Shown: positions 216 through 14,888 of the stretch, piece by piece | Numbering within the stretch: the stretch's first letter is position 1 | How the letters are laid out: each line of letters opens with the position of its first letter | Virus record (IMG/VR): IMGVR_UViG_3300008266_007976 | Location: 1 to 41,338 of that record | Source: a virus | Taxonomy: Duplodnaviria; Caudoviricetes | Strand: one strand, 5' to 3' | Length of the DNA: 41,338 nucleotides | The notes under the pieces: model-generated | What the model saw: only the letters and a program-made list of their open reading frames with translations | Told to the model about the DNA's origin: nothing | Databases searched by the model: none | Made by a program: the position numbers and the translations under genes

Positions 216-1277
216 TCAGTACGCCGATGCCGTGCCCGTCCGCTGAATCGGAGCAAGCCCCAGATGCCGCTCCCAGCGGTCCGCCATGACGGAAGCGGTG
301 TAATGCTGCCACGCAATGCGGCGGGCTGAGTCTGCCAGCGTGTGCCGAAACGTGTGAGCAGTCAGGATGGCGGCTGCAATCTCCGCAGGGGAACAGTCGA
401 GCCGGACGGGAACCCCGAGGTCTTGACCGTGGTCGCGCCGCAGCTGCGCGGCAAAGGGCCAATCTGCGTACACAGTCGGCACGCCGGCAATCCACGCCTC
501 GCACAGGGCAATCGGGTGGGCCTCTGTCTCGGATGGCAGCACGAACACGTCAGAGGCTGCCAGTACGTCGCCAACATGATCCTGCGGTGGCAGCACGCGG
601 ACACGCGGGTTCTGCGCCATGGCCTTCGTCCATCCGGCCTGATCCGGCCCCGCAATCAGCACCACCCAGCTGGACGGCAGCCAATCAAGAGCAGAAACCA
701 GCGCCCATGGCCGTTTCTCCGCGCAGATTCGCCCGCAGAACGTGGCAACACGCTCCTCCGGCTTGATGCCAAGCCGCTCACGCATGGCGCTCCTACCAGC
801 CCGCGGCGTGCATCGGTCAACCTCTGCGCCGTTTGGGATGTAAATGCCGCTGCCGCGAACTGGCCAGACGTTGAGGCTGTTGTCGGACACCGCAAGCAAT
901 TCGACGCCGGGGACGGCGCCCATGCGGCTGGTGACGTTGTCTCCCCACTGGTTTCCGGGACTGCCGTGGCTGACCGCTATCAGCCGGCCGCGGAAGATCC
1001 TGCGGAAATCCGCGAGTTGGTTCCATGCCCATGCAATGACGATGTCGCACCGCTCCGCGAATTGCGCAGCATGATCCCCGGTCATGATCGGGCCAAGCGT
1101 GTGCGCCTCCGCTGCCAGCGGGCCCTGATCGGTGTGGGAGAGGAAGCCGGCAATGTCTGCGCCGTGCAAATGCTTGGCCAACGTCAGCACCCACCGCTCG
1201 GCTCCACCGCACCCGAATCCCGGCGTAATGAATCCCACGCGCTTCCGTGCGCCACCGTAATGCCCCCGGCGACTCAT
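216..1277 (-). CDS. GT-B fold glycosyltransferase, family 4-like (353 aa)
   Basis: N-terminal GGAER motif, FCGRICAEKRP, and DVFVLPSETEAHPIALCEAWIAGVP (ExxxxxxxE). ATG at 1277 overlaps the upstream stop (ATGA). Confidence 0.9.
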   Translation of the reverse strand: MSRRGHYGGARKRVGFITPGFGCGGAERWVLTLAKHLHGADIAGFLSHTDQGPLAAEAHTLGPIMTGDHAAQFAERCDIVIAWAWNQLADFRRIFRGRLIAVSHGSPGNQWGDNVTSRMGAVPGVELLAVSDNSLNVWPVRGSGIYIPNGAEVDRCTPRAGRSAMRERLGIKPEERVATFCGRICAEKRPWALVSALDWLPSSWVVLIAGPDQAGWTKAMAQNPRVRVLPPQDHVGDVLAASDVFVLPSETEAHPIALCEAWIAGVPTVYADWPFAAQLRRDHGQDLGVPVRLDCSPAEIAAAILTAHTFRHTLADSARRIAWQHYTASVMADRWERHLGLAPIQRTGTASAY

Positions 1278-2962
1278 GAAACCAGATTGCCGGAGCAATG
1301 CACAGCGAGCCCGAATCCGCTGCCGTAGCTTGGGTGGCTGGTGACATCCACCCACACGCCTGCGCCTCTGCGCAGATTGCGGACGGCTGTCGCTTCGGTG
1401 TAGTATGCGCCGGCTGGGAGCGTCCACGTTGCTGCCGTCTGACTGTCCACCATGATCTTGCCCGAGATGGCGTCGGTGGCTGTGCTGTTCACCGCAATCA
1501 TCCAGACGCCGTCCTTGATGGCTACCGGGGAAACGTCTGCGGCCACGGCGCCCAGCGGTACCGCGGTGTCTGGGCTGAGAATCTCCTGTCCCCAGCTTCC
1601 GCGCAGCCCGGTCGTGTCGCTCAGTTCCCGTTGATAGACCACGCCACCAGTCTCAATGTCGTGATAGGCCACGAGAATTGACTTGGTGGTGACGTGAATC
1701 CGGGTGGCCAGCTTGCGGCGGTCGTCATGCCAGAGCAGCTGATTCCCGGCTGGATCTGACCCGGTGAGGTTGAGGGTGTCGGCCACGTTGCCGTCCCGCA
1801 TGATGTTCCCGGACACGTTGACCAGCGGCACGCCGCGGAGCGTGAGCCATTCCGTGAAATGAACGTGCCCGCAGAGGATGCCATCCACCTGGGCAAATTC
1901 CGGCCAGTCCATGGCTGCCACCACGCGGTTGGCCTCCTCGGAAACCGTGAGTGCCGGGTGATGGAACGCCACAAGCTTCCACCGGGCTGTGGAAAGCGCC
2001 AACTGCTGGACGAACCATTGATGCTGCACGCTGCCCACCGCGTTGCCATCCGGCTCCACCAGCGTCATGGCGCTGTTTACTCCGGAGTGCAGCACGAACA
2101 CGTCGAGCAGGCCATTCCCGAAACTCTTGCGGTAGTAGCGGGTGTTGCTGCCCAGATAACTGAACTTGCTCGCGTGCGCTGCCCAGTCGTTCACGTCGTG
2201 GTTCCCGAGTGCCGGGTAAACCTTTTGCGCGGCCACCAGCGAATCGAACGGTGCCCACGACTGCGCGAACGTCGCGGGGGCGTAGTGGTTGTCCCCAATA
2301 AACAGAGCAGCGTCCACGCTCCACCCGGCAATCAGGCTGGCCAGTGCGGTGGCGGTGGCTCCCGGTGTGCCAGTGTCGCTGACGGCTGCCAGCGTAAGCC
2401 GCTGCGCCGTGATTGGTCCGGTCCACAGTTGCCAGTCTCCCACGGCCGTGCTGCGGGCGAAATAGATCCCGCGGGAATCACGCTGGTATCCGAGTTGTCC
2501 GGCCCGGGCTGGATTCACTGCACCGCGGGCCGCGTCGTCCGCCCATGAAGGAACGTCCTGCAATCCCTCGGCCGGCACCGTGATGCCCGGTTCGATGCCT
2601 GCCACCTGCATGTCCCCGATCTGCATCGTGAGCATGGTGAGGCGGTCCAGCGCATCCTCCACCGACTCCGCAGGGAAGCGGGAACCCTCCGGAAGGTCGA
2701 GAGGCTGCGTGAACGGCACCCACCGGAATACGATCACCTCGGTGGTGCTGGGGTATGCCGCGGCGGTTGTCACGTATGGCGCTGCGCCTTCGGGATCGTG
2801 AACGGTGAAGGCTGCGCTGCCAAGGTCTGTCTCGGTTTCGCCGACAATGATCCGCACACGGATGTTTCCGGCGTCCCGCAAGAACGGGAAGGTGATGGCG
2901 TAGGGCTGCGTGGTACTACCGTTACCCTGGTAGCGGATGGCGCGGACGTTGGTGGAGATCAT
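1274..2962 (-). CDS. Tail fibre/spike with T7 gp17-like N-terminal anchor and a calcineurin-like metallophosphoesterase domain (562 aa)
   Basis: N-terminus YQGNGSTTQPYAITFPFL...ESVEDALDRLTML is typical of podovirus fibre anchors. The central domain has SDTG, GDNHY, GNHD, FHHP and GHVH metal-binding motifs. Confidence 0.85.
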   Translation of the reverse strand: MISTNVRAIRYQGNGSTTQPYAITFPFLRDAGNIRVRIIVGETETDLGSAAFTVHDPEGAAPYVTTAAAYPSTTEVIVFRWVPFTQPLDLPEGSRFPAESVEDALDRLTMLTMQIGDMQVAGIEPGITVPAEGLQDVPSWADDAARGAVNPARAGQLGYQRDSRGIYFARSTAVGDWQLWTGPITAQRLTLAAVSDTGTPGATATALASLIAGWSVDAALFIGDNHYAPATFAQSWAPFDSLVAAQKVYPALGNHDVNDWAAHASKFSYLGSNTRYYRKSFGNGLLDVFVLHSGVNSAMTLVEPDGNAVGSVQHQWFVQQLALSTARWKLVAFHHPALTVSEEANRVVAAMDWPEFAQVDGILCGHVHFTEWLTLRGVPLVNVSGNIMRDGNVADTLNLTGSDPAGNQLLWHDDRRKLATRIHVTTKSILVAYHDIETGGVVYQRELSDTTGLRGSWGQEILSPDTAVPLGAVAADVSPVAIKDGVWMIAVNSTATDAISGKIMVDSQTAATWTLPAGAYYTEATAVRNLRRGAGVWVDVTSHPSYGSGFGLAVHCSGNLVS

Positions 2963-3531
2963 GAGAGTAGAACGTAGGTGATGCGCTGGCGCTTGTATCC
3001 CGGATTGCCCCACAAGCGAACGGCTTCCGACTTGGCCAGATTGTAGAAGGCGTCCCACTGCGCCGGCGGAATGGTCTGGCATCCCTCGGACGAAGTGCCG
3101 CGATTGCCTCCCCGGTGGATGTTGATTCCGAACATCCCGGTATCGGGTCCGGTGCCGTCGCGGTCCACGGTAACGGGTCCGAGTCGCTGGCAGATTGCCG
3201 GGTGGGCAAACGTGCCGTTGTGCGTGTCGAACTTGTAAACGTCCCAGATTCCCGGCTGGAGGACCGCCATTCCCTTCCGTGATGCGGTGGCGGGCCGGAA
3301 TCCGGACGGGTCCGTGTTGGCGTTGAAAGCCGCAAACGCTTCGGGCGTCCAGATGAAGATGGCGTCGTCGTAAATGCCACGGTCATTGCGGCCCACGGCT
3401 CCCATGCTGTCCCGGTAGTATCCCCGGATCCCAGCGAGGAAGAACGGTGGCAACACCCATTGCGGATACGCCCGATGAATCCGCTCCAGCAATGCGTGGC
3501 GGGTGAGATTGGGACGGCTCGGTGGAATCAT
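2959..3531 (-). CDS. Putative endolysin, L,D-transpeptidase (YkuD)-like Cys peptidase (190 aa)
   Basis: GINIHRGG...SSEGCQT matches the HxG...SxGC catalytic motif; also GIRGY...YDD and NTDPS. Adjacent to a lipoprotein gene at the end of the late operon. Confidence 0.75.
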   Translation of the reverse strand: MIPPSRPNLTRHALLERIHRAYPQWVLPPFFLAGIRGYYRDSMGAVGRNDRGIYDDAIFIWTPEAFAAFNANTDPSGFRPATASRKGMAVLQPGIWDVYKFDTHNGTFAHPAICQRLGPVTVDRDGTGPDTGMFGINIHRGGNRGTSSEGCQTIPPAQWDAFYNLAKSEAVRLWGNPGYKRQRITYVLLS

Positions 3532-3834: not shown

Positions 3835-6800
3835 TCACTTCAGCATGCTCTGCAATCCCAGAATCCGTTCACGGAGTTCCTGTTGTTTCTCCGGATCTTT
3901 CTCCCGGCCAAGCTTGTTCTTGAGGGAGTTGATTCGTTTCTGCGTTTCGTCGTCTGTTTCGATGATGTTGTCGGCCACGCGGAATGCCTGATCTGTGATC
4001 CCGGCGACCACCGCAGGGAACGCGGACAGTCCCTTCATGACGCCAGTGAATCGCTTCCCGTACCATTCCACGGCCTCGGCTTCGCCATCCGGCGGGCCTT
4101 TGATGATGGCCACGGCGTCGGCTGCTGCCTTCCCGGTGGCGGCCAGCGGCCCGGTGTCCCCACTGAAGTCATCCACGATCTCCCGGATGAGCGGCAGGCC
4201 GGCGGCTGGGCCAAGGAGGATGGAGCGGGCAAAGTCCCATGCCTCCCAGTTCTTTTCATCCAGCCACTGGTCGTCGTCGTCGTCGCGCCAGTCCATCCAT
4301 GCGCTGGAAATGATCTGAAGCATGGGGCCAACCACGAGGTGGGACAGTGCCAGCACCCGAATGTCGTCCGGCGTGGCCTTGCCCTTCGTGGCGGCTGCCA
4401 GTGCGGAAATCCACATGCTGGCCTTTTGCCGGCTGTCCCCGCCGAACATGAGCAGCAGCTTTCCCCACCCGGTCTGCTCAAACAGTGATCGGTCTGTCAC
4501 TTCCACGGGCTGCGCGGTTTGCGTCACGATCCGCTCGGTTTCGGCCAGTGCTTGGCGCTTGGCAGCGGCCTGCCGGAGGTGGTAATCGTAGGCAATGGCG
4601 GCGCTGAAGCTTGTGAACATGGCGTCCACGTAGCCAATCAGTTCCATCCCGGCGCGAAGGAAGTTGCGGCGGCGGGTCGGTGCGGCGAGGAATGTCTTGG
4701 CCACGGCGCTGCGAACTTCCGGGGAGAAACCGCCTTCGATGCGGCGCTGGATGATGTCGCTCTGCCAGATGTCTTTCACGTCCAATCGGCCGGCAATAAA
4801 CTTGCCCACGCCGCTCATGTACTCCCGGAGTGGGATCTTAAAGGCGGCACCGAGCGCGGCGGTGCTTTGCTTCAGCAGCGTGCCAACTTTCCACGCCAGC
4901 GCGGTGGTGGCCTGCCAGTCGAGCATAGTCTGGTACAGGCGGCTGTAGCCGATTTGCAGACCGTTCCCCTCCAGTGATTCCATCCATTGGTTGACCACGG
5001 CCAGCATTTCCGGGCCGTGGGCGGCCACGATCTGCTGCTTCACGTCGGGATCTGCGAACACGCCACGGAGTTCCCGAGCCAGCGGTGCCATCGCCTTCCA
5101 GTGCGCGGTCTGGTTGGCGTGCCCGAAAAACACCTCGAAGGCGTTCTCCAGTCGCGGGGCGGCTTGGTGCGCCTTCCGGCCTTTGAGGAATCCAGCGCGG
5201 AATCCGCCCTCCACCAGTCCGGCCTGCGCCGGGTCCATGGCCTTCTCGGCTCCCCTGCTCCACCATTTGCCGGGTGCGTAGTTCTCAATTTGCGGCAGCG
5301 GAACCCCGAACATGCCCTCGAAGAGCGATGAAAGCGGGAAGTATCCCGTCCGGTATTCGTCCGCCATGAAGGCCCGCATGTCCTTGGCCAGTGGTGAAAG
5401 GCCGGCTTCGATCTCGGCCAGCGTCTCGGCTGTCCATCCGGCAATCTCCAGCGGGCGGGTGTATTGCGCCTGCGCGGCCAGCATGGTGAGGTAGATGCCT
5501 TCGGCCTGCGTCAGTTCCACTTCCTCCTCTGTGCCGGGTTCCCAGCGTGTAATCGTCACAAATGTTGCAGTCGAGTCCCGGCCTGCCTGCATGTTTTTGA
5601 GACGCCGCCCGGTAGTGGCGGCAATTCCACGGGCCGTGGACATATCAACGGAAAGCGCCATGAACGCATCCTCGGCGTCGGCAATTTCCTGCGCGTTGTA
5701 TCCCAGTGCGGCAAGGTTTGGGATGCTTTCAATGGGGATGCGCTCTTCCACGAGCCTGCCGGGTCGGCGAACGGCGCTCACGGTGCGCTCACTGATAAGC
5801 GTCCACAGTTCCTGCTCTGTCTTCGTGCGGTTGTTCCCGGTCGATTTCCGGGCCGCAGCGAACCATCGGCGGTTCATGTCGCGCATCTCGTCGGTGCGCT
5901 GGTGCATCGCTGCCATGGCGCGGTCTGCCCACTCGGTGGCCAGCGGCGCGTCCTTGCCCAGGAGGATTGTGAGAATCTCCCGGAATGACCGGAGCCGGAG
6001 AACGCCACCATTCAGCATTCCGCCGATCCGCTTGGCGGCATCGCCCTGGGCGAGGATTGCGGATGTCTTCGCGGCCGGCAATGCAGCGGAAACCCCGGCC
6101 ACCTTTGCGGCCACGTCGGCAAGGCGGGCCTCTTCGATGGTGCGCCAGTAGTTCCGCCCAGTCTGGTAAACCTGCATTGCCTGTGCCAGTGCGGCCTCAA
6201 GGTCGGCGGCATCGTGCAGTGGAACGCGGTCCTTCATGGCATCCAGCCCCCCGAACGTGTCGAGAATCTGCTGCCGTTCCCACACGTTGGCCTGCTCCTC
6301 CGGTGTGGCAGCGTCTGCCAGTTCCTGCTCCAGCGCCACCCGGCGGGCGTCCACGTCGGCTGCGGACAGGTCCAGCACGGCGGCCACGGCATCGAAGTAG
6401 CGGTGCGCCTCGGCTCCAAGCTTTCCGGTCGGCTTTTCACCGGGCTTCCGGGTGGGCATGGCGCGGTCCACCAGTGCGCGGATTTCCTTAATGGCATCGG
6501 CCCGCAGCGTGCGTTCCAGTTCCTTGTCGAGGATTTCCACGCGGCGTTCGATCTCCTTGGCCATGGCCTCCTGTGTGCCGAGTCGGGCGAGAGCGAGCCA
6601 TCCGCCAACCTTTCCGCGAACCTCGGCCGGGAATGCTGCCAGCACGGCGTCAAGCGTCCGCATGGCGCGGGTCAGCACGGCGCGGTCGTCCCAGTCGGCA
6701 CGCTGCCACTGGTCCATGCGTTTCCTCCAGGCTTCCGTCTCGGTGGCGGCCTGCTTGGCTGCGGCCATGGCAACGGTGTTGTTCCCGGTGGCCTCGGCAA

Positions 6801-9800
6801 CGTAGGCGTCGGCGGCATTCTCTGCTTCGGCGCGGGCTTCAGTGAGAGCCACCTTGTAGTCGTTTACCCACTCTTCCGCCCACTCCTTGGCTTCCTGCGC
6901 GGTGGCTTTAAGTGCGGTCTGGTAGTCGTCCCAGATCCCGGTGAGGCGCTCATTCTCCGCAAGCTCCCGGCTGATGGCGTCCCATAGCATGTCCGGCGTG
7001 ACATCGGCTGCGGTGGTTCCGGATGGGAATACTTCCGGCATCACGCCGAACAATTCCTGCGCCACCACGTCGGGCCGGCCATTGCCGGAGAACAGAATCC
7101 GCGGGAGTTCGTGGCTGCCGTCCCATGACGCAGGGTTCACGTACTCGCCTTTCCCGGCGTATCGCTGCGCCCTCCGGTAGCTCATGAGCGTCCCTTTGTA
7201 CCGCCCACCTTCCTTCTTGGAGAGGTAGCTGATGACGGGTCCGTCCCAGAAACCGGAGTCCCGGTAAATCTGTGAGACGCTGCGGGCATAGTCCTCGTCC
7301 ACCTTTTCCACCAGTTCGATGCGCTTGAAGGTCTGCCGCACTCCTGCCTCGCGGGAAATGGCCTGCCCGGTCTTCTCTTCGATTCCGCGGGCTTCGAGTT
7401 GGTTGGCAAGCTCTGCCCGGTAGGCGTCGGCGCGTCCCCGGCGGATGTCCTGTGCGCTGGCCAGCGTCACGCCGGCCTGCACAAGCAGTTCCTCTTCCCG
7501 GAGGGCTTGGCGGATGTCCTGCTCGCTGTCGAGGCTGGCCACGCTCCGGCGCTCCACGAACCCGGCGCCCTTCCGGTTCCGGAGGAAGGCGTCCCGCAGT
7601 GCGGTCAGGTTCTCACGGGCGCGGGCCACCATGTCGAGGCGGGCCTGCGGACTGCGGGCCATGCGGGCCTCCACGTTGGCGGCCACGTTGTCGAGCATGG
7701 CCTCGGGCTGGAGGGAGAAGGATGCCTCTATCTCTGCTCCGGTGGAGGCGCGTCCAGTTCCAGCGCCATCACCTGCTCGAAGGTCATTTCCTTGCCCAGT
7801 TCCGCCTTGTAGCGGCGTTGGGCCTCCAGAAGGTTGGCCACCATTTGCGGGTCCAGCCCATACCGGGCGCTCAATTCCTCGCGCAAGGAGTTGTTGTCTA
7901 GCTTCGTCATCGGGCAAAGACTGCCAGATGGCGCGGGTTTGCTCAAGCAGTTTCTTGCCCTTTTCGTCCCGCCCATAGAGTCCCCGGACGGCTTCCCATG
8001 TGATGCTCTGCATTTGCCGCGGGAGGATACCCCGCTCGGCTGCGGCCTCTTGGTACGCGGCCAGATAGAGGTAATAAACTCCGGCGATTCCGTAAACTTC
8101 ACTCTTCCCGGCTGCGCCGAAGTTGTCTTCGACTTCTCGGGCGCTGGAACCGAACGGCATCAGGTGAGCGGCGGCCACCGCATGCGTGTCCATGGTGGTG
8201 TCACCAAAGGCGCTGTTGGGCGCAATGATGTTGTTGTAGAACGACCGTACCTTGTGCATGTCGCCAACTTCCTCGGAGATGTTCTCAAGGCTGCCGTCTT
8301 TGATGATGCTGATGCACTTGAGGATTTCCACGGTGCTTCCCCATGTGTTCGTTCCGGGGTTTCCATTGTCCCGGATGAACGTCCCCATGGTTTTGCCCTC
8401 CGGGGTGAGTGCATTGTAGGTGCGCCCGAACTTATACTGGGCCAGCAGTCTCACTGTCCAAGCTTGCAGAATTGGAGTGCTTACCATTTGGGCCAGCGTC
8501 TTGCCTTTGGCCAACTCAAAAAGGTCACGCCGCTCCTGCTTCAATGCTTCCAGCCTGCTGCGGTTTTCTTCCAAACGGGCGTTTCGCTGTGCCTTGGTTT
8601 CATTCGGTTGCTTTGGTGCTTTTTGGCTATCCTTCAGCACGGCAGCTTGAGCGATGTCCTCGCCGGCCGTGTCCAGCATGTCCTGCGTGACGGTCGTGCC
8701 CTGATCGCTCAACCAGATTTCAATCACCTGCTCGGCTTGGGTCACGTTCATGAACCAATCCTTTTGCGGGGACAGGCAGGCCATGATTGCGGCGGTCTGC
8801 TGCGGCGTGAGTTTCCACTGCTTGGCGAGGCGCTTGGCGATGCGGTTGGCACCATCATACCACTGCGTGGCGCGTGCGCGGAGTTCCGCAGGGAACTTGT
8901 CATGCAGCGCCAGCAGGTTGGTTTTCATCCAGTCGATGAGTTTGCGGGCCTTCTTTGCCGGATCCTGCTCTGCCAGAATGTCCTTTGGCAGGTGCGAATA
9001 ATTCATCTTGGCCATGTGAGCGGCCAGAATCTTGGGCGGGATATTGTCGAAGGAGATGTTGTCCTTGTTGGTGGTCGCCTTGGGGTTGGCCTTGGTGCCC
9101 TTCTTCGAGGTTCCTACACGGAACTTATCGTCCTTTTTGGTCGGCTTGCTGATCTGCGCTACCTTTGTGAGGCTGAACGAAATCTCCGGCCTCGTCACGT
9201 CGAACCGCTGCGACAACGGCACGAGGTTCCCGGCTTCGTCGTAGGTGAACGGGTCTGCGGATTTGATCTGCTCCGGCTCAAAGGCGATGTAGTTGTTGCC
9301 GTACAGGAACGGGCCTTCTGGGTCATCCATCTCGCTCGGCATCACAATGCCATCGTATCCCTGCGACTTGAGGAATTGCGTGAATTCCAAAGCGCTTTCA
9401 GTGAGTTCAAGTTCCGGACTGTCAGGCTCATATCCTGTGCCGCGGAAATCCATGAACCTGTCGTCATGTTCCGGAACCCACTTGGGATTCCTCAGATTCA
9501 CGAACCATTTGGTGGTTTTCCCGGCATTGTGCGCTTCTGCATCACGCCGCTGCTCAGTCATGTAGAAAAACGGCGCTCTGATAATGCCGCCCTCCATAAT
9601 CTCGGCACCACTGTGGTATGCTTGGCGCATGCCTTTGGACTTCGCCACGGCATCCACCATCGCCTGCGCTTCCTGCTCCGCCGCAGCATCCCCGGCCTTG
9701 GCGCGGCGTTCGAGGTCTGCGTGGCGGGCGTCTTGCTCGGTCAGGTTGAACGCCCACACGTCGTCACCTTCTTCCCGCGGATTGTAAATCAGGTCCGCTT

Positions 9801-12800
9801 CATCCTGCACGTCCTTGGCAGCTTCGATGCCGGGGGCCACGCCAGTCACCCGTTGCAGGAACGATTCCAGTGGGAACTCTTCGCCCTTGGCGCGGCTTTC
9901 GGCCATGGCGCGGTTGAGCCGGATGGCCTGCTTGATGATCGTCTTGAGCCACTGCACCCGACTCTTGAGGTAATCGAAAACCGACTTGGCCACGCCTTCG
10001 GACTCGGCTGCCTTCAGCTTGGCACGTGTTCCCTTCCGGTATTCCCGTACAATGCGCGGCACGGTGGCGGTGCCGGCCTGTCCGGCGCGGGCCTTTCCGG
10101 TGACGTAAATCTGGGTAAGCAGGGAAAGCGCCTCCTTCACCGCCAGCGAATCCTTCGCGGCGTCGGTTCCGGTGTAGCCGAATAGGTACTGGCCACCTGT
10201 GCGCTTCTCAATCTCCCTAATCTTGGCGGCGAACGTGGCAGTGGTTTCCTCCCCACTCCGCAGCATCGCGGTCGCGTCGGCTTCGACGCGTTCCTCCAGT
10301 ACGGTGTAGGGGGATGCTCCACGGGCCACCTGGACGACGGCTGTGGCCACGCCTTCCCGCACTTCCATCTCGCTCTGTCCTCCCACCATGAGCGTGCGCA
10401 GGTCCACCTTCTTCCCCTTGTTGGCGGCCTCGTAAATCTCCACCCGGTTCTGGAGATTTGTGATGTAGTTCTGCGCGGCGGTGCGCTCCGCCAGCGTGGC
10501 GTCGGGATCGTTGGCGATTGCGGTCTGCTCCTCAATCACCTCGGCCACGCTCATGCTGTCGCGGATTGTCGTCTGGCTGGCTCCGGTCGGCGCGTTGGGC
10601 CGCATGTCGAGGGCTTCGGAAATCTCAGCCAGCGCGGCCACGTTTGCCCAGTCCTGCGCTTCGTCACTGATGCGCTCAATGACATCGGCGGCTTCCTGCG
10701 CGGAAGCGGCTTCGATGGCGCTGCCGTCATTGGCTACCACCGTGAAGCTTCCGTCGCTGTTCCGGCGGACGGCGCGGATTCCCACGGCGTCGGACTGCTC
10801 GGCCAGATCCCGGGCTGCTGCCATTTCCTCGTCGGCAATTGCGCCGGCTGCGGTTTCCTGCCACGCCACGTCCGGTTCGGTGTCGGCGTCCCGCTGCGCG
10901 TAGCCATCGGCCACCGCTTCCATCTTGGCCTGCACGGTCGGGGCGGCCTTCACCGCTTCGATGGCTTCGTCGCTCATGCCCACGGCTTTCATGGCTGCGG
11001 TCGAAGACATAAGTTCCCGGCTGGCTGCGGAGTCCCGGGCCACGTTCACGCCTGCGCCAATGAGGGCGAGTGGTGCCACGGCAAGCAGGGTGCGGAGGTC
11101 GAACATCTCGTAGTTCCGCCAGTCGGCATTCGGCACGTCTTCCTTGAGGCTGGCCAGCAGATCCTGCGCGAGCATCGGCGTGGCGTCCTGTAGCTTCTCA
11201 ATCGTGTACTCGGCTCCGGTGGCCACGGCTCCGTAGATGGCGAACCGGGCGAGCGGGTTCCCGCCGGGTCCGGCCAGTGCGTTCATGGCCTTGTTGAATC
11301 CGGGAAGCTTCCCGATCAGTCCCATCTGCTGAATCTTCTCCAACCCGGCCTGCACGGGTGCGGCAGCCCATGCCAGCACGCCAGCGTCTGCCACCTTCAT
11401 CGTGGGATTGCTGTTGAGCAGGTTGGCAAGGTTCTGGTCTGCGAATGACGCGGCGGTCATGGCCATGCCGGCGTAAGGGATTGCGGTGGTCGCCATGTAG
11501 CCAAGGGATCCGGCCACGTCGTAAACGGCTTGCTCTGCCAGCTTCCCGGCCGCGGTCTTCGCTGAGGTGAGAATCGGGTCGATGACGGACACGGTGGCCT
11601 CCCGCAGCAGGGACCGGGCGATGTCCCGGCGGGCGATGGCCTGCCGCTCCTCGGTAACCAGCGCGGCGGTTTCCGGCGTGGGCGTTCCCATCATTGGCGC
11701 GGTGCTGGTCAGGCTGCTCAAGATGTCCCACGATGCACCGAGTGACCGGGCAATGGGCCGCCGGAATGATGCCACGATCTTGTCCCACATGTCCCGCCCA
11801 TCGGGATCCTTCCGGGTTTCCGCGAGGGCTCGGACTGTCGGCATGACCACGCTCCGCAGCGTCTCGGGGTCCATGTCCTCTAGGGGGGCCATGGCGTCCG
11901 TGATCTGCTTGGTCATGGCGGCAAGCCGCACGACTTCGCCACCGCCCATCATAGATTCAGCGCCTTCACCTTCGGCGCGGGATGCTGCCAGAATGTTCTC
12001 CACCACGCTGCGGACCTTCTCGCGGAGAGGCGCGGCCTTGTCGTCGGCCTGTCCGTAGACGGCGCGGAACTGCTGGAAGAAGTCCTGCTTGTCGGCTGCT
12101 GGCGACCACGCCGGGGATTTGCGGGCGGCCTCCTTCCACTGGGCAAATGCTTCCGCCACCGGGAGTCCGGCGAGTCCGGCACGCCACGCATTGCGGGCAA
12201 GGCTCGCTTCGTTGATCGCTTTGGTTTCGGCGTCCTGCTTGGTATCCACCGGGAACATGAGCGGGCCGTGCATCGATGCCGGCACGTTGGTGGGCAGTTG
12301 CTGCTGGCTGGGTGACGGGTCGCGGCCTGCGATAATCCACCGCAGTTTCTGCCGCTCTCCGGCGGCTTCCCGCAGCTTTCCGGCCACGGCGGCGTCTGAT
12401 CCTCGCGGCGCGGTTTCCCCGAACATCTCGACTGCGAGGGCGTCACGAGCGGCGTCCCGGTCTGCTGCCAGCACGGACGGCGGCTTGTTGGCATCCCATA
12501 CAGAGCCGGAGATATTCACCCGGCGGCTGGCTCGCTCGGCCAGCATGGAGTCGATCAAGAGTGCGTCCTTGGCTGCGGCCTGCTGCTCCGGCGCCGCGGT
12601 CAGGATCGTGTCGAGTTGCAGGCGCTTGGCCTCTCCGTCTGGGTCCAGAGCCAGAGCATCAAGGCGGCTGAGACGCTGACGCTGCGCTTCCAGATCCTTC
12701 TCTCTGGGGGCCGATACCCGAAAAGCGCGGTACTGGTTGACCTGCGCCAACCAGAATGATCGCTCAGATTCCGGCGCGGCGGCGGGCCCGCCCGCTCCCA

Positions 12801-12852
12801 TGATCTGTTCGTATTCATCGTCTGTGAGAATGCCGGGGGGTGTAGGGATCAT
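3835..12852 (-). CDS. Giant internal virion/ejection protein, polyvalent (about 3005 aa)
   Basis: Third gene after the nozzle/GNAT genes, with TGATG coupling at 12850-12854. Helical Ala-rich scaffold with inserted ART-like (~9170-9740) and HhH/DUF7178-like (~7870-9000) modules. Confidence 0.85.
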   Translation of the reverse strand: MIPTPPGILTDDEYEQIMGAGGPAAAPESERSFWLAQVNQYRAFRVSAPREKDLEAQRQRLSRLDALALDPDGEAKRLQLDTILTAAPEQQAAAKDALLIDSMLAERASRRVNISGSVWDANKPPSVLAADRDAARDALAVEMFGETAPRGSDAAVAGKLREAAGERQKLRWIIAGRDPSPSQQQLPTNVPASMHGPLMFPVDTKQDAETKAINEASLARNAWRAGLAGLPVAEAFAQWKEAARKSPAWSPAADKQDFFQQFRAVYGQADDKAAPLREKVRSVVENILAASRAEGEGAESMMGGGEVVRLAAMTKQITDAMAPLEDMDPETLRSVVMPTVRALAETRKDPDGRDMWDKIVASFRRPIARSLGASWDILSSLTSTAPMMGTPTPETAALVTEERQAIARRDIARSLLREATVSVIDPILTSAKTAAGKLAEQAVYDVAGSLGYMATTAIPYAGMAMTAASFADQNLANLLNSNPTMKVADAGVLAWAAAPVQAGLEKIQQMGLIGKLPGFNKAMNALAGPGGNPLARFAIYGAVATGAEYTIEKLQDATPMLAQDLLASLKEDVPNADWRNYEMFDLRTLLAVAPLALIGAGVNVARDSAASRELMSSTAAMKAVGMSDEAIEAVKAAPTVQAKMEAVADGYAQRDADTEPDVAWQETAAGAIADEEMAAARDLAEQSDAVGIRAVRRNSDGSFTVVANDGSAIEAASAQEAADVIERISDEAQDWANVAALAEISEALDMRPNAPTGASQTTIRDSMSVAEVIEEQTAIANDPDATLAERTAAQNYITNLQNRVEIYEAANKGKKVDLRTLMVGGQSEMEVREGVATAVVQVARGASPYTVLEERVEADATAMLRSGEETTATFAAKIREIEKRTGGQYLFGYTGTDAAKDSLAVKEALSLLTQIYVTGKARAGQAGTATVPRIVREYRKGTRAKLKAAESEGVAKSVFDYLKSRVQWLKTIIKQAIRLNRAMAESRAKGEEFPLESFLQRVTGVAPGIEAAKDVQDEADLIYNPREEGDDVWAFNLTEQDARHADLERRAKAGDAAAEQEAQAMVDAVAKSKGMRQAYHSGAEIMEGGIIRAPFFYMTEQRRDAEAHNAGKTTKWFVNLRNPKWVPEHDDRFMDFRGTGYEPDSPELELTESALEFTQFLKSQGYDGIVMPSEMDDPEGPFLYGNNYIAFEPEQIKSADPFTYDEAGNLVPLSQRFDVTRPEISFSLTKVAQISKPTKKDDKFRVGTSKKGTKANPKATTNKDNISFDNIPPKILAAHMAKMNYSHLPKDILAEQDPAKKARKLIDWMKTNLLALHDKFPAELRARATQWYDGANRIAKRLAKQWKLTPQQTAAIMACLSPQKDWFMNVTQAEQVIEIWLSDQGTTVTQDMLDTAGEDIAQAAVLKDSQKAPKQPNETKAQRNARLEENRSRLEALKQERRDLFELAKGKTLAQMVSTPILQAWTVRLLAQYKFGRTYNALTPEGKTMGTFIRDNGNPGTNTWGSTVEILKCISIIKDGSLENISEEVGDMHKVRSFYNNIIAPNSAFGDTTMDTHAVAAAHLMPFGSSAREVEDNFGAAGKSEVYGIAGVYYLYLAAYQEAAAERGILPRQMQSITWEAVRGLYGRDEKGKKLLEQTRAIWQSLPDDEARQQLLARGIERPVWAGPANGGQPSGGPTPLQGGTGQGNDLRAGDGAGTGRASTGAEIEASFSLQPEAMLDNVAANVEARMARSPQARLDMVARARENLTALRDAFLRNRKGAGFVERRSVASLDSEQDIRQALREEELLVQAGVTLASAQDIRRGRADAYRAELANQLEARGIEEKTGQAISREAGVRQTFKRIELVEKVDEDYARSVSQIYRDSGFWDGPVISYLSKKEGGRYKGTLMSYRRAQRYAGKGEYVNPASWDGSHELPRILFSGNGRPDVVAQELFGVMPEVFPSGTTAADVTPDMLWDAISRELAENERLTGIWDDYQTALKATAQEAKEWAEEWVNDYKVALTEARAEAENAADAYVAEATGNNTVAMAAAKQAATETEAWRKRMDQWQRADWDDRAVLTRAMRTLDAVLAAFPAEVRGKVGGWLALARLGTQEAMAKEIERRVEILDKELERTLRADAIKEIRALVDRAMPTRKPGEKPTGKLGAEAHRYFDAVAAVLDLSAADVDARRVALEQELADAATPEEQANVWERQQILDTFGGLDAMKDRVPLHDAADLEAALAQAMQVYQTGRNYWRTIEEARLADVAAKVAGVSAALPAAKTSAILAQGDAAKRIGGMLNGGVLRLRSFREILTILLGKDAPLATEWADRAMAAMHQRTDEMRDMNRRWFAAARKSTGNNRTKTEQELWTLISERTVSAVRRPGRLVEERIPIESIPNLAALGYNAQEIADAEDAFMALSVDMSTARGIAATTGRRLKNMQAGRDSTATFVTITRWEPGTEEEVELTQAEGIYLTMLAAQAQYTRPLEIAGWTAETLAEIEAGLSPLAKDMRAFMADEYRTGYFPLSSLFEGMFGVPLPQIENYAPGKWWSRGAEKAMDPAQAGLVEGGFRAGFLKGRKAHQAAPRLENAFEVFFGHANQTAHWKAMAPLARELRGVFADPDVKQQIVAAHGPEMLAVVNQWMESLEGNGLQIGYSRLYQTMLDWQATTALAWKVGTLLKQSTAALGAAFKIPLREYMSGVGKFIAGRLDVKDIWQSDIIQRRIEGGFSPEVRSAVAKTFLAAPTRRRNFLRAGMELIGYVDAMFTSFSAAIAYDYHLRQAAAKRQALAETERIVTQTAQPVEVTDRSLFEQTGWGKLLLMFGGDSRQKASMWISALAAATKGKATPDDIRVLALSHLVVGPMLQIISSAWMDWRDDDDDQWLDEKNWEAWDFARSILLGPAAGLPLIREIVDDFSGDTGPLAATGKAAADAVAIIKGPPDGEAEAVEWYGKRFTGVMKGLSAFPAVVAGITDQAFRVADNIIETDDETQKRINSLKNKLGREKDPEKQQELRERILGLQSMLK
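7728..7910 (-). CDS. Candidate nested (overprinted) 60-aa helical protein inside the giant gene
   Basis: MTKLDNNSLREELSARYGLDPQMVANLLEAQRRYKAELGKEMTFEQVMALELDAPPPEQR is protein-like, while the host frame here is a Gly-rich low-complexity linker. Confidence 0.55.
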   Translation of the reverse strand: MTKLDNNSLREELSARYGLDPQMVANLLEAQRRYKAELGKEMTFEQVMALELDAPPPEQR

Positions 12853-14888
12853 CAGAGTTTGCGGAATGAGGTGACAGGCGTGTCGTTGTCGGTGCTGGGA
12901 GCCTGCGGGCTGTAGATGTCCCAGCGGCCACGGAGGCGGTTGCTGGTGCGGTCCATCCACCGTCCCCGGTGCGTGCGCCCATCGGAATACGTGAGTTCGA
13001 TCTCGTCACCAGGGCGAACGCCGGCAGCACGCAGTTCCCGTTCTTTGTCCGGACTGACGGCGATGTCACCGGCCTGTAGCTGCATCGGGTGGGAGTCGCC
13101 GCGCTTGGCTGCCTTGATCGCTTCCTGCCCGGAGAACGATCCGATTCCCATTGAGGAATAGGTGTCCGGCGTCTCGTCATTGGGGTAGCCGTAGGAAGTC
13201 ACGCGGCCAGTCGTGCGGGCCTGCGGGCCTGTAGCACCAACGGCTCCTTGTGCGCCACTGGGAAATAGCGTGGAATCCGGAGCCTCTCCAGTGTCCTGCA
13301 TTCCCTGTGCCCGCTCAAGGCGTCCGCGGATGTTGAACCATGTGGCAGGAGTGGGCTGCCCAACGCTGACGGCAGAGGTCGTGTCGAGGATTTTGGCTGC
13401 GTCCGTTTCACGGATGATGGTTCCGGAAATGCTCTGGATCTGCTCGCGAACCTGCTGCGGTGTGGCGTTCGGGTTGGACTGGAGCCACCGATCCATCTCA
13501 ATTTCCAGATTGGCGCGGCGGAGCTGGGCGTCTGCCTGCTTGGCGGTGTCGATCCTTTCCTGCTTCGTGACCGGGTCCACGCTGCGGAAGGCTCCGAGTT
13601 GGCCGTTTTCGTACAGGGCTTTGACCTGCTCGGTCTTGTAGGCTTCCACCACGTCACCGACAACGGGGGCGCGGGCGTTCCATTTGTCGTTCAGTGGTCC
13701 GGTGATTTTGCCACGTAGTGTTTCCGGCAGCGTCTGCGTGGCTGCCATGATTTCCACGTAGCGGTCGCGGGCTTCCTGCGCACCGGGGCCGCCCATGCGC
13801 TCAAGGTCGTAGGCGTCCACTGCGTCCAGCATTTTCCCGAACCGGGCCGTGATGGCTTCCGGCGTGTTGTAATCCGCCTTGGCCCGCTCGGCTGCCATCT
13901 GGTCGAAGGCTCCAAGGAACTTGGCGCGGTCGGCTGGACGCAGGCCATTGGGCAGCGCGGCCTCCAGCCCGGCGCGGGTCTGCTCCGCGATCGGCTTCGA
14001 GGTGAATCCAGAAAACACGTCGGCGGCATCATTCATGCGGCGTGCCCGCACGCTGTTTACAATCTGCTGCGCGGTGGAAACGTCGCTCAGAGTCTTTCCG
14101 CTCCGCCACTGCTCGGACTGAATCTCCTGCTCCGTCGCGTCTGGGTCGGCCTCGGCCTTGGCCAGCAATGCCATCTGCGCCTGTTGCTCGGCGGTTGCTT
14201 TGGCCTCCCGTTCTGCCTGCTCCTTGGCGTTAATTACCAATCCCTGTACCTTTGGTAGTTCGGTGGCTGGCAGCAGGTTGGAAGCGATTCCCTGCTGCGC
14301 CAGCGTCTCCGCGGTTCCCCAGTCGCGATTATTGATGGCCGTCATGATCTGCGCGGACACGGCGTCGGCGGCGCGGGTGTGGCTGGTCCGGATGCTGTCA
14401 ATGCGTGCCGCGGCCACCTTCCGGGTTTGCCATTGTGTGATCCGGTCGGTGATGGCTTCCCGGGCCGCCGGGGAAAGCGGGTTCTTCGCGGGGTCGAGAA
14501 TCGTGCTGGCTGCCTTGGCTGCGATGCGTTCCGCGATGGCCGGCCATTTGGTTTCGTCCAGTTCGGACTGCTTGGCCACGTCCAGTTCGGCGTCGAACTG
14601 CTCAAGCGCCGTCACGGCATCATGCTCCTTCCGCAGGTTAATCATGTCCTGCTGCGCCTTCTCGGCTTGGAAGAGGGCGTCACCGGTGCGCTCAATGGCT
14701 CCGCCGATGCGGCCAATGGCGGCGGCCTGTGCCACAAAACCGCGCTCATCGATCTCCACCGGGCGCTGCGCTCGCATCGATGGGGCGAGGTCGATGCTGA
14801 ATCCTCTGGTGTCCGGCGTGGCCGGGAGGGCAGGAGCGCGGGCCGGAACCAGCGGCGTGCTGTCCATGATTCGTGGGATGCGTGCCAT
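12852..14888 (-). CDS. Internal virion/ejection protein with C-terminal 3D/DPBB (RlpA/MltA-like) lytic transglycosylase domain (678 aa)
   Basis: Helical body. The C-terminus VTSYGY...DIAVSPD...GDEIEL...WMDRT...RWDIY matches the 3D/DPBB pattern. Confidence 0.75.
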   Translation of the reverse strand: MARIPRIMDSTPLVPARAPALPATPDTRGFSIDLAPSMRAQRPVEIDERGFVAQAAAIGRIGGAIERTGDALFQAEKAQQDMINLRKEHDAVTALEQFDAELDVAKQSELDETKWPAIAERIAAKAASTILDPAKNPLSPAAREAITDRITQWQTRKVAAARIDSIRTSHTRAADAVSAQIMTAINNRDWGTAETLAQQGIASNLLPATELPKVQGLVINAKEQAEREAKATAEQQAQMALLAKAEADPDATEQEIQSEQWRSGKTLSDVSTAQQIVNSVRARRMNDAADVFSGFTSKPIAEQTRAGLEAALPNGLRPADRAKFLGAFDQMAAERAKADYNTPEAITARFGKMLDAVDAYDLERMGGPGAQEARDRYVEIMAATQTLPETLRGKITGPLNDKWNARAPVVGDVVEAYKTEQVKALYENGQLGAFRSVDPVTKQERIDTAKQADAQLRRANLEIEMDRWLQSNPNATPQQVREQIQSISGTIIRETDAAKILDTTSAVSVGQPTPATWFNIRGRLERAQGMQDTGEAPDSTLFPSGAQGAVGATGPQARTTGRVTSYGYPNDETPDTYSSMGIGSFSGQEAIKAAKRGDSHPMQLQAGDIAVSPDKERELRAAGVRPGDEIELTYSDGRTHRGRWMDRTSNRLRGRWDIYSPQAPSTDNDTPVTSFRKL

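Follow-up and report, generated by a model that had tools for sequence, protein, structure and literature searches.

A candidate inhibitor gene nested in the +1 frame of a giant phage gene, behind a predicted HhH-GPD glycosylase domain

The giant gene and its nested reading frame

The virus record analysed here (41,338 bases, referred to in its full length as the window) contains a podovirus-like virion cluster encoding a head-tail connector, capsid and tail proteins, followed by ORFs of 344, 678, and 3041 aa. The 3041-aa ORF (3835..12960, minus strand) is the last large gene of the cluster. Its product carries an ART-PolyVal domain (aa 1132-1236; 32 bits against a cut-off of 31.2) and a DUF7178 domain (aa 1280-1702, with the Pfam match beginning at aa 1336). 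Because these two domains occur together in a protein encoded among virion genes, it fits the polyvalent proteins, which the main text of Iyer (2017, PMC5512222) presents as giant multi-effector proteins. The likeness includes the combination of several conflict-type domains in one large protein and the position of ART-PolyVal among late virion genes: the DUF7178 domain is surrounded by conflict effectors, namely ART in the window and PBECR5 and RadC in relatives, which also carry LPD22. From the gene position and by analogy with the proteins treated in the main text of PMC5512222, we infer that the 3041-aa protein is an ejection protein that is packaged and injected.

The giant gene contains, on its own strand but shifted to +1, a 60-codon ORF (7728..7910, minus strand) that runs from an ATG at 7910 to a TAG at 7728-7730, spanning main-frame codons 1684-1743. 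The gap between its end and an SFSL motif at aa 1747 (7711..7722, minus strand) is three codons; this motif marks a module boundary and closes a cassette that a second SFSL, at 9180, opens. An overprinted 60-aa gene on the strand of the giant gene, stopping just before the SFSL boundary, had been proposed in the first-pass annotation, and the coordinates, together with the codon statistics given below, confirm it. The same annotation placed the gene in a Gly/Thr/Pro linker after the enzyme domain. The main frame does stay open across the nested gene and encodes such a linker, but the nested start lies outside it, as the first ~17 codons of the nested gene coincide with the conserved end of the enzyme domain.

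Over aa 1681-1740, main-frame third-position GC is only 0.37, the remaining 49 bins ranging over 0.57-0.88; the three codon positions over the nested ORF follow the usual pattern of the giant gene, offset by one base. A codon model trained on the giant gene was applied to alternative-frame ATG ORFs of at least 35 aa. The nested ORF scored 27.1 and was the sole positive among 24 such ORFs in the giant gene (the next scored -10.2), while none of the 27 alternative-frame ATG ORFs in seven other genes was positive. Among relatives, positive scores were obtained for 14 of 40 partner ORFs, with a median of -3.4 versus -20.4 for 260 other ORFs. An assembly frameshift was considered as the origin of the nested ORF and ruled out: four public DNA runs contain no insertion or deletion across 7500-8300, and another assembly carries an identical 3,180-nt copy of the locus. 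Strain variants in the nested ORF are very few, comprising one synonymous and two non-synonymous changes in the +1 frame, all three being non-synonymous in the main frame.

Conservation was assessed in the best 80 of 394 viral stretches matching the enzyme domain, which yielded 78 loci and, at 95% identity, 54 representatives. The conserved Trp of the P-x-W motif that ends the enzyme domain, denoted W, served as the reference point for counts in all frames. After W, the main frame stays open for at least 45 codons in 48 of the 54 representatives and meets a stop within three codons in the remaining six, where the small gene comes next as a conventional neighbour. None of the 48 nested loci, which share ancestry and hence are not 48 independent trials, and whose enzyme domains are just 38-55% identical to that of the window, has a +1 stop between W-10 and W+39. 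This stretch amounts to ~2,390 codons, in which ~80-125 stops would be expected at the flanking rates (0.03-0.05 stops per codon, with bins ranging over 0.013-0.074); the +2 frame of the same loci is not depleted of stops. An ATG is present within W-20 to W-3 in 51 of 54 loci, compared with 3-42 of 54 in 14 control windows.

Selection was examined along 38 minimum-spanning-tree edges among 59 unique nested loci, nine singletons being left unused. In the enzyme core, differences at main-frame codon positions 1, 2, and 3 number 102, 52, and 390, respectively, and in the linker 241, 93, and 86, position 1 of the main frame being position 3 of the +1 frame. Changed codons of the linker are synonymous in 189 and non-synonymous in 151 cases if read in the +1 frame, versus 49 and 286 in the main frame. 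Identity over the linker is higher in the +1 frame than in the main frame on 32 of the 38 edges, lower on one and tied on five. An intermediate substitution pattern, as double coding would give, is seen in the 15 codons before W. Since the variable codon position switches to that of the +1 frame, the Gly/Thr/Pro linker is largely a shadow of the nested gene. The frame thus lies wholly inside another one, is conserved in relatives and is under purifying selection specific to +1; the nested 60-codon ORF is real and under selection. A conserved alternative-frame ORF in homologues and frame-specific selection were the two evolutionary checks suggested in the first-pass annotation, and both gave a positive result.

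Partner types and their linkage to the enzyme

The +1 products of the 54 representatives comprise type A (17, including the window) and type B (37, 29 of which were aligned). Type A partners share 26-39% identity with the window peptide, and homology between types A and B was not detected (E 0.09). The product of locus L116 seems intermediate between the two, by eye only. Partners are net acidic in 17 of 17 cases for type A and 31 of 37 for type B. The window peptide has no match in Pfam or PHROG, and the 29 type B members have no credible match to a known family. A protein search with the window peptide returned a single match, a 97% variant, and searches with type A partners led to already known contigs, two window-identical copies and one chance match (L158).

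Linkage between the two genes is tight among the closest viral relatives. A small gene lies directly behind the enzyme in 54/54 representatives (drawn from the best 80 of 394 matches), and a type B query used alone retrieved 19 loci, many of them near-identical; in all 19 the partner is in +1 and the enzyme immediately precedes it. Matches to the type B profile (E<=0.001) extend to 1,611 protein clusters at 50% identity, tandem forms among them. Where the enzyme gene ends, the partner may overlap the enzyme stop in the +1 frame (e.g., L015, L023, L061, L066, and L075), and L027, L117, L132, and L137 encode it separately, in frame 0 or +2. Every free form seen belongs to type B.

A quick maximum-likelihood tree was built from 82 rows, omitting 20 similar representatives as well as several loci that were partial or duplicates, and is unrooted. 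Type A, together with L116, forms one branch (SH-aLRT 99), and partner type follows the enzyme clade. Free and nested forms alternate on the tree, at least five changes of the free label being forced by well-supported branches; the direction between free and nested forms cannot be set, because the tree has no root. It had been suggested in the first-pass annotation that the effector was captured with its small partner gene as a cassette. Free-standing pairs of this kind do exist, but the direction of capture is not borne out, given the alternation of forms and the confinement of free ones to type B.

Among 42 loci on genome contigs, 27 have a partner recognized by profile (E<=0.05; three weak), four have an unclassified +1 ORF only, recognized by eye, nine have none, and two are uninformative. 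One of three cultured phages carries a partner, none being detected in the other two. Rhodobacteraceae phage LS06-2018-MD07 (L099), Bradyrhizobium elkanii WSM2783 (L133), and Jannaschia seohaensis (L107) are culturable and carry the nested form. The 11 partnerless enzymes retain the Asp motif in all cases and the HhH Lys motif in nine; a linked antidote is therefore not obligatory. The type B profile, used without a positive control, found no partner elsewhere in any of five records of partnerless genomes. A decayed relic of the nested gene was also sought at the partnerless loci but found no support, with 0/11 clearly above shuffles in a procedure that recovered only five or six of eight positive controls. 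Downstream of the partnerless enzyme in L100, L111, L112, L129, and L139 there is a shared unnamed main-frame domain starting with A-P-D/N-P, which might replace the nested inhibitor in cis.

The arrangement also varies in other respects. The nested gene is 100-120 aa long in L009, L010, L011, L025, L041, L035, L051, L060, and L064, where it reaches well into the next main-frame part and sometimes encodes a second helical segment. In the database protein P0156 the C-terminal part of the enzyme is fused in frame to a type B partner, and P0122 and P0149 contain two tandem type B units each. In L143 (Verrucomicrobiales) the nested gene is intact, but the reading frame is broken a short way ahead of the type A start, which could be an assembly error or a broken host gene. 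The polyvalent gene of L005 has in its +1 frame (1806-1995) another nested ORF (63 aa) with a positive score, located in a linker before an unnamed 160-aa domain; in its relatives L145-L149 the +1 stretch is open at the same place, with no clear shared sequence.

Predicted enzyme fold, complex and expression signal

The DUF7178 domain is encoded at 7855..9123 (minus strand). An AlphaFold model of the domain, based on 54 sequences, has a pLDDT of 94. The top match in a wide structural search was Thermotoga 8-oxoguanine glycosylase (OGG; Z 9.3, rmsd 3.8, 184 aligned), followed by the queuine-salvage family DUF2419 (Z 8.3 and 8.0), AGOG (Z 7.5), and then Mag1, endonuclease III, ROS1, OGG1, and MutY. 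All but three of the 23 listed rows with Z >=5.0 are HhH-GPD glycosylases or DUF2419, these Z-scores being modest for a helical protein. Foldseek with the whole enzyme model returned nothing at E<=0.001, and sequence relatives of the enzyme were not found among solved structures (PDB).

The predicted two-domain helical fold, a conserved HhH lysine and a downstream aspartate are the features of the HhH-GPD superfamily. The lysine (aa 1570, residue 291 of the domain, HKVR motif; 8251..8253, minus strand) and the aspartate (aa 1591, residue 312 of the domain, DTH motif; 8188..8190, minus strand) are invariant in 54/54 representatives and are the putative catalytic residues. By analogy with the chemistry of endonuclease III and OGG, they would be the equivalents of K120 and D138 of endonuclease III. 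OGG, AGOG, endonuclease III, MutY, and the queuine-salvage DUF2419 thus resemble the domain in the predicted fold and in the invariant Lys and Asp in HhH-type motifs, but identity is 4-13% and the phage domain has large insertions. The DUF7178 domain is predicted to have an HhH-GPD DNA-glycosylase (glycosylase/AP-lyase) fold, and the model and structural search support the first-pass assignment of an HhH/DUF7178-like domain upstream of the nested gene. No paper found in the literature searched names DUF7178.

The nested peptide is modelled by AF2 as a three-helix bundle (pLDDT 79), for which no fold match was found at Z >=5. Structure co-prediction of peptide and domain, also proposed in the first-pass annotation, gave a 1:1 complex for the window pair with an ipSAE of 0.92 (runs 0.92, 0.82, and 0.93), versus 0.01 for the best control. 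At least 88% of the contacts are common to the runs, with a partner pLDDT of at least 77. The mark used for co-folds is reached by 116 of 157 solved complexes and by 2 of 215 mismatched pairs, counts that are only approximate with the alignments used. Recall of a like complex is made less likely by the lack of a sequence relative of the enzyme among solved structures.

On the enzyme, the predicted interface includes residues 119-120 (P119-Q120), 260-268 (W261-L268), and 287-292 (G287-V292, with K291); the HhH lysine would be covered in the complex, as would the S-P-Q wedge motif and Trp261. An insertion specific to type A (residues 157-219) contributes to the interface. HhH enzymes hold DNA on the face covered in the co-fold, and the peptide is predicted to sit on this DNA-binding face. 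The enzyme side contributes four K/R and four D/E among 41 residues, and the partner side seven D/E and two K/R among 31. Since hydrophobic residues prevail and charge complementarity is not strong, the interface points only loosely to DNA mimicry.

A candidate internal promoter for a leaderless transcript precedes the nested start (7918..7946, minus strand). It consists of TTGAGC (7946-7941), a 17-nt spacer and CAGTCT (7923-7918), followed by 7 nt to the ATG. In type A loci, a TTG is found 7-8 codons before a conserved aromatic residue in 20/20 cases, with 5.9 expected from the codon use of each gene, and the residue encoded at this site varies (L, V, I, or F). The full layout (TTG, 16-18 nt, and an nAnnnT hexamer whose end lies 6-10 nt ahead of the ATG) is present in 14 of these 20 loci, compared with 2.8 of 20 expected from synonymous resampling and 3 of 235 other +1 ATGs, the pattern having been defined after inspection and on related loci. 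A cruder promoter scan of all 54 representatives gave a mean z of 1.14, with 20 values above 1.64. A strict scan of the window found no promoter, the second (-10) hexamer of the window copy being weak. Because the pattern is post hoc, the loci are related and the second hexamer of the window is poor, the signal is treated as a lead only; as such, the conserved TTG and hexamer may represent the promoter layout of a leaderless mRNA. Shine-Dalgarno-like motifs precede a candidate ATG in 32/54 representatives, including many type B starts. The missing Shine-Dalgarno motif at 7910 was considered as counter-evidence and discarded, as almost none of the 17 other starts in the window has one.

Proposed role of the nested protein

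We consider it probable, at roughly 0.7, that the nested peptide is the cognate inhibitor of the enzyme and that it is nested so that the enzyme-antidote cassette fits inside the polyprotein. The co-fold alone cannot separate an inhibitor from an activator. The small protein could instead be a true binding partner with a chaperone, activating or specificity role, for example as an aid to folding or packaging. Linkage and co-fold are also compatible with such a role, partnerless enzymes with intact motifs persist, and part of the interface lies on the type A-specific insertion; it is nevertheless unlikely, since the HhH lysine and the wedge motif, at which DNA would be bound, fall within the predicted footprint, and a promoter-like signal of its own is consistent with the partner being expressed independently of the enzyme. 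The nature of the closest folds, 8-oxoguanine glycosylases and a queuine-salvage enzyme, and the 11 enzymes without partner would suit a harmless enzyme of phage DNA repair (such as that of oxidized guanine) or nucleotide salvage, which the nested protein only times. The domain sits, however, among the conflict effectors ART, PBECR5, and RadC, and we know of no repair glycosylase that requires a linked inhibitor, so that a harmless function appears quite improbable.

There is little to recommend ribosomal frameshifting, by which the +1 frame would provide an alternative C-terminus and a shorter enzyme-partner fusion. The in-frame fusion of the enzyme end with a type B partner in P0156 resembles such a product, but may be an assembly indel; the conservation of the ATG in 51/54 loci, the +1 stops shortly upstream in many of them, the Shine-Dalgarno-like motifs in 32/54 and the wholly separate genes in four loci all argue against it. 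An untranslated nested ORF, arising by chance or passively from the main frame, is hardly credible: the codon model is positive for only 14/40 partner ORFs in relatives, but stop depletion, the switch of the variable position and the free-standing homologues contradict this explanation.

If the nested peptide is the inhibitor, the phage could house what is probably a DNA-damaging enzyme in a probable virion protein without self-harm. The enzyme would excise bases and nick DNA, with host DNA or a host base modification favoured as the target by slightly better than even odds. The giant protein would be packaged and injected, and the first to act would be the enzyme brought in with it. The inhibitor would have a separate source, a leaderless mRNA from a weak host-type promoter; it would turn the injected enzyme off after transcription of phage genes has begun, and would also neutralize new enzyme during assembly, guarding replicating and packaging DNA. 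In prophage-borne relatives it may additionally protect the lysogen. A tyrosine integrase or serine recombinase domain was not found in the window genome; lysogen immunity therefore may not apply to the window phage, and lytic self-protection fits better. Nesting could have originated by loss of the enzyme stop codon and purging of stops from the main frame across the partner, and would enable the enzyme-partner pair to move as one block within the polyprotein.

Small genes lying wholly within a larger one on the same strand are known from lambda Rz/Rz1 and comS/srfA. The embedded spanins Rz/Rz1 are co-acting membrane subunits whose products interact, and embedded, overlapped and separate forms of their genes coexist; comS lies inside srfA, and ComS acts on an unrelated pathway. 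Unlike the pair proposed here, neither is an enzyme-inhibitor pair. Ugi, a small acidic inhibitor of host uracil glycosylase, is similar to the nested protein in covering the catalytic/DNA-binding pocket (here by prediction), but its target has a fold other than the HhH-GPD fold predicted here. As proposed, the present pair functions in the manner of MuF toxin-immunity pairs, and its architecture resembles that of lambda Rz/Rz1, but it is neither.

In the MuF polymorphic toxin-immunity pairs of temperate phages, as described by Jamet (2017, PMC5576092), a C-terminal toxin is accompanied by a small gene of its own standing. The common features are an effector on a protein of the phage structural region and a small ORF directly behind it, an arrangement that the free type B loci match. 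In contrast to those pairs, the window has an internal effector whose small gene is contained in the same gene, in +1, and the enzyme is a predicted HhH-GPD glycosylase. No MuF match to Pfam was obtained for the giant protein, in which the DUF7178 domain is an internal one followed by 1,300 aa. Small acidic proteins covering the pocket, and more than one unrelated partner family per enzyme (here types A and B), also occur with the RehhI immunity proteins, several unrelated families of which are reported to serve one toxin (10.64898/2026.09.22.753552); Rehh itself is an HNH-derived DNase, unlike the predicted HhH-GPD enzyme.

The main text of PMC5512222 does not contain the words "glycosylase," "overlap" or "linker," and no description of a nested partner gene was found there, although its supplement could list the domain under another name. 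In the literature searched, which mostly excludes subscription journals, no report of the enzyme-partner pair or of nested genes in polyvalent proteins was found. The inhibitor reading, if true, would show how a polyvalent virion protein can harbour a toxic domain internally while the antidote stays linked to it, a question for which no treatment was found in PMC5512222. DUF7178 gains a predicted fold, candidate catalytic residues and a candidate inhibitor, making cloning and assay practical. The loci form a natural series from separate through overlapping to fully nested genes, and the same 200 bases hold the main frame, a second frame and a promoter-like signal. The 1,611 clusters matched by the type B profile alone imply a large class of missed genes, which gene finders usually overlook. 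It is possible, though we would not give it even odds, that phages can stack toxic enzymes in the injected polyprotein because the linker behind each enzyme holds, in a shifted frame, the antidote to it together with a promoter for that antidote. The "disordered linkers" of polyvalent proteins would then be a large hidden layer of inhibitors, and the enzymes of the present family would be undescribed weaponized HhH-GPD glycosylases, timed off by an early-made inhibitor.

Relatives of the locus lie in large bacterial contigs, and the closest enzyme relatives in genome bins belong to Opitutia and Verrucomicrobiales, which suggests a verrucomicrobial host. One metagenome contig of 85,543 bases contains the locus twice (L150 and L151), 41,460 bases apart, each copy being window-identical over 3,180 bases. 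The spacing points to a unit of ~41.5 kb for the genome and to near-completeness of the window, although the record has a completeness rating of 78%. Elsewhere in the window, at 1274-3082 and 216-1427 (both minus strand), the N-terminus of a tail protein is fused to a calcineurin-like phosphoesterase and adjoins a group 1 glycosyltransferase gene.
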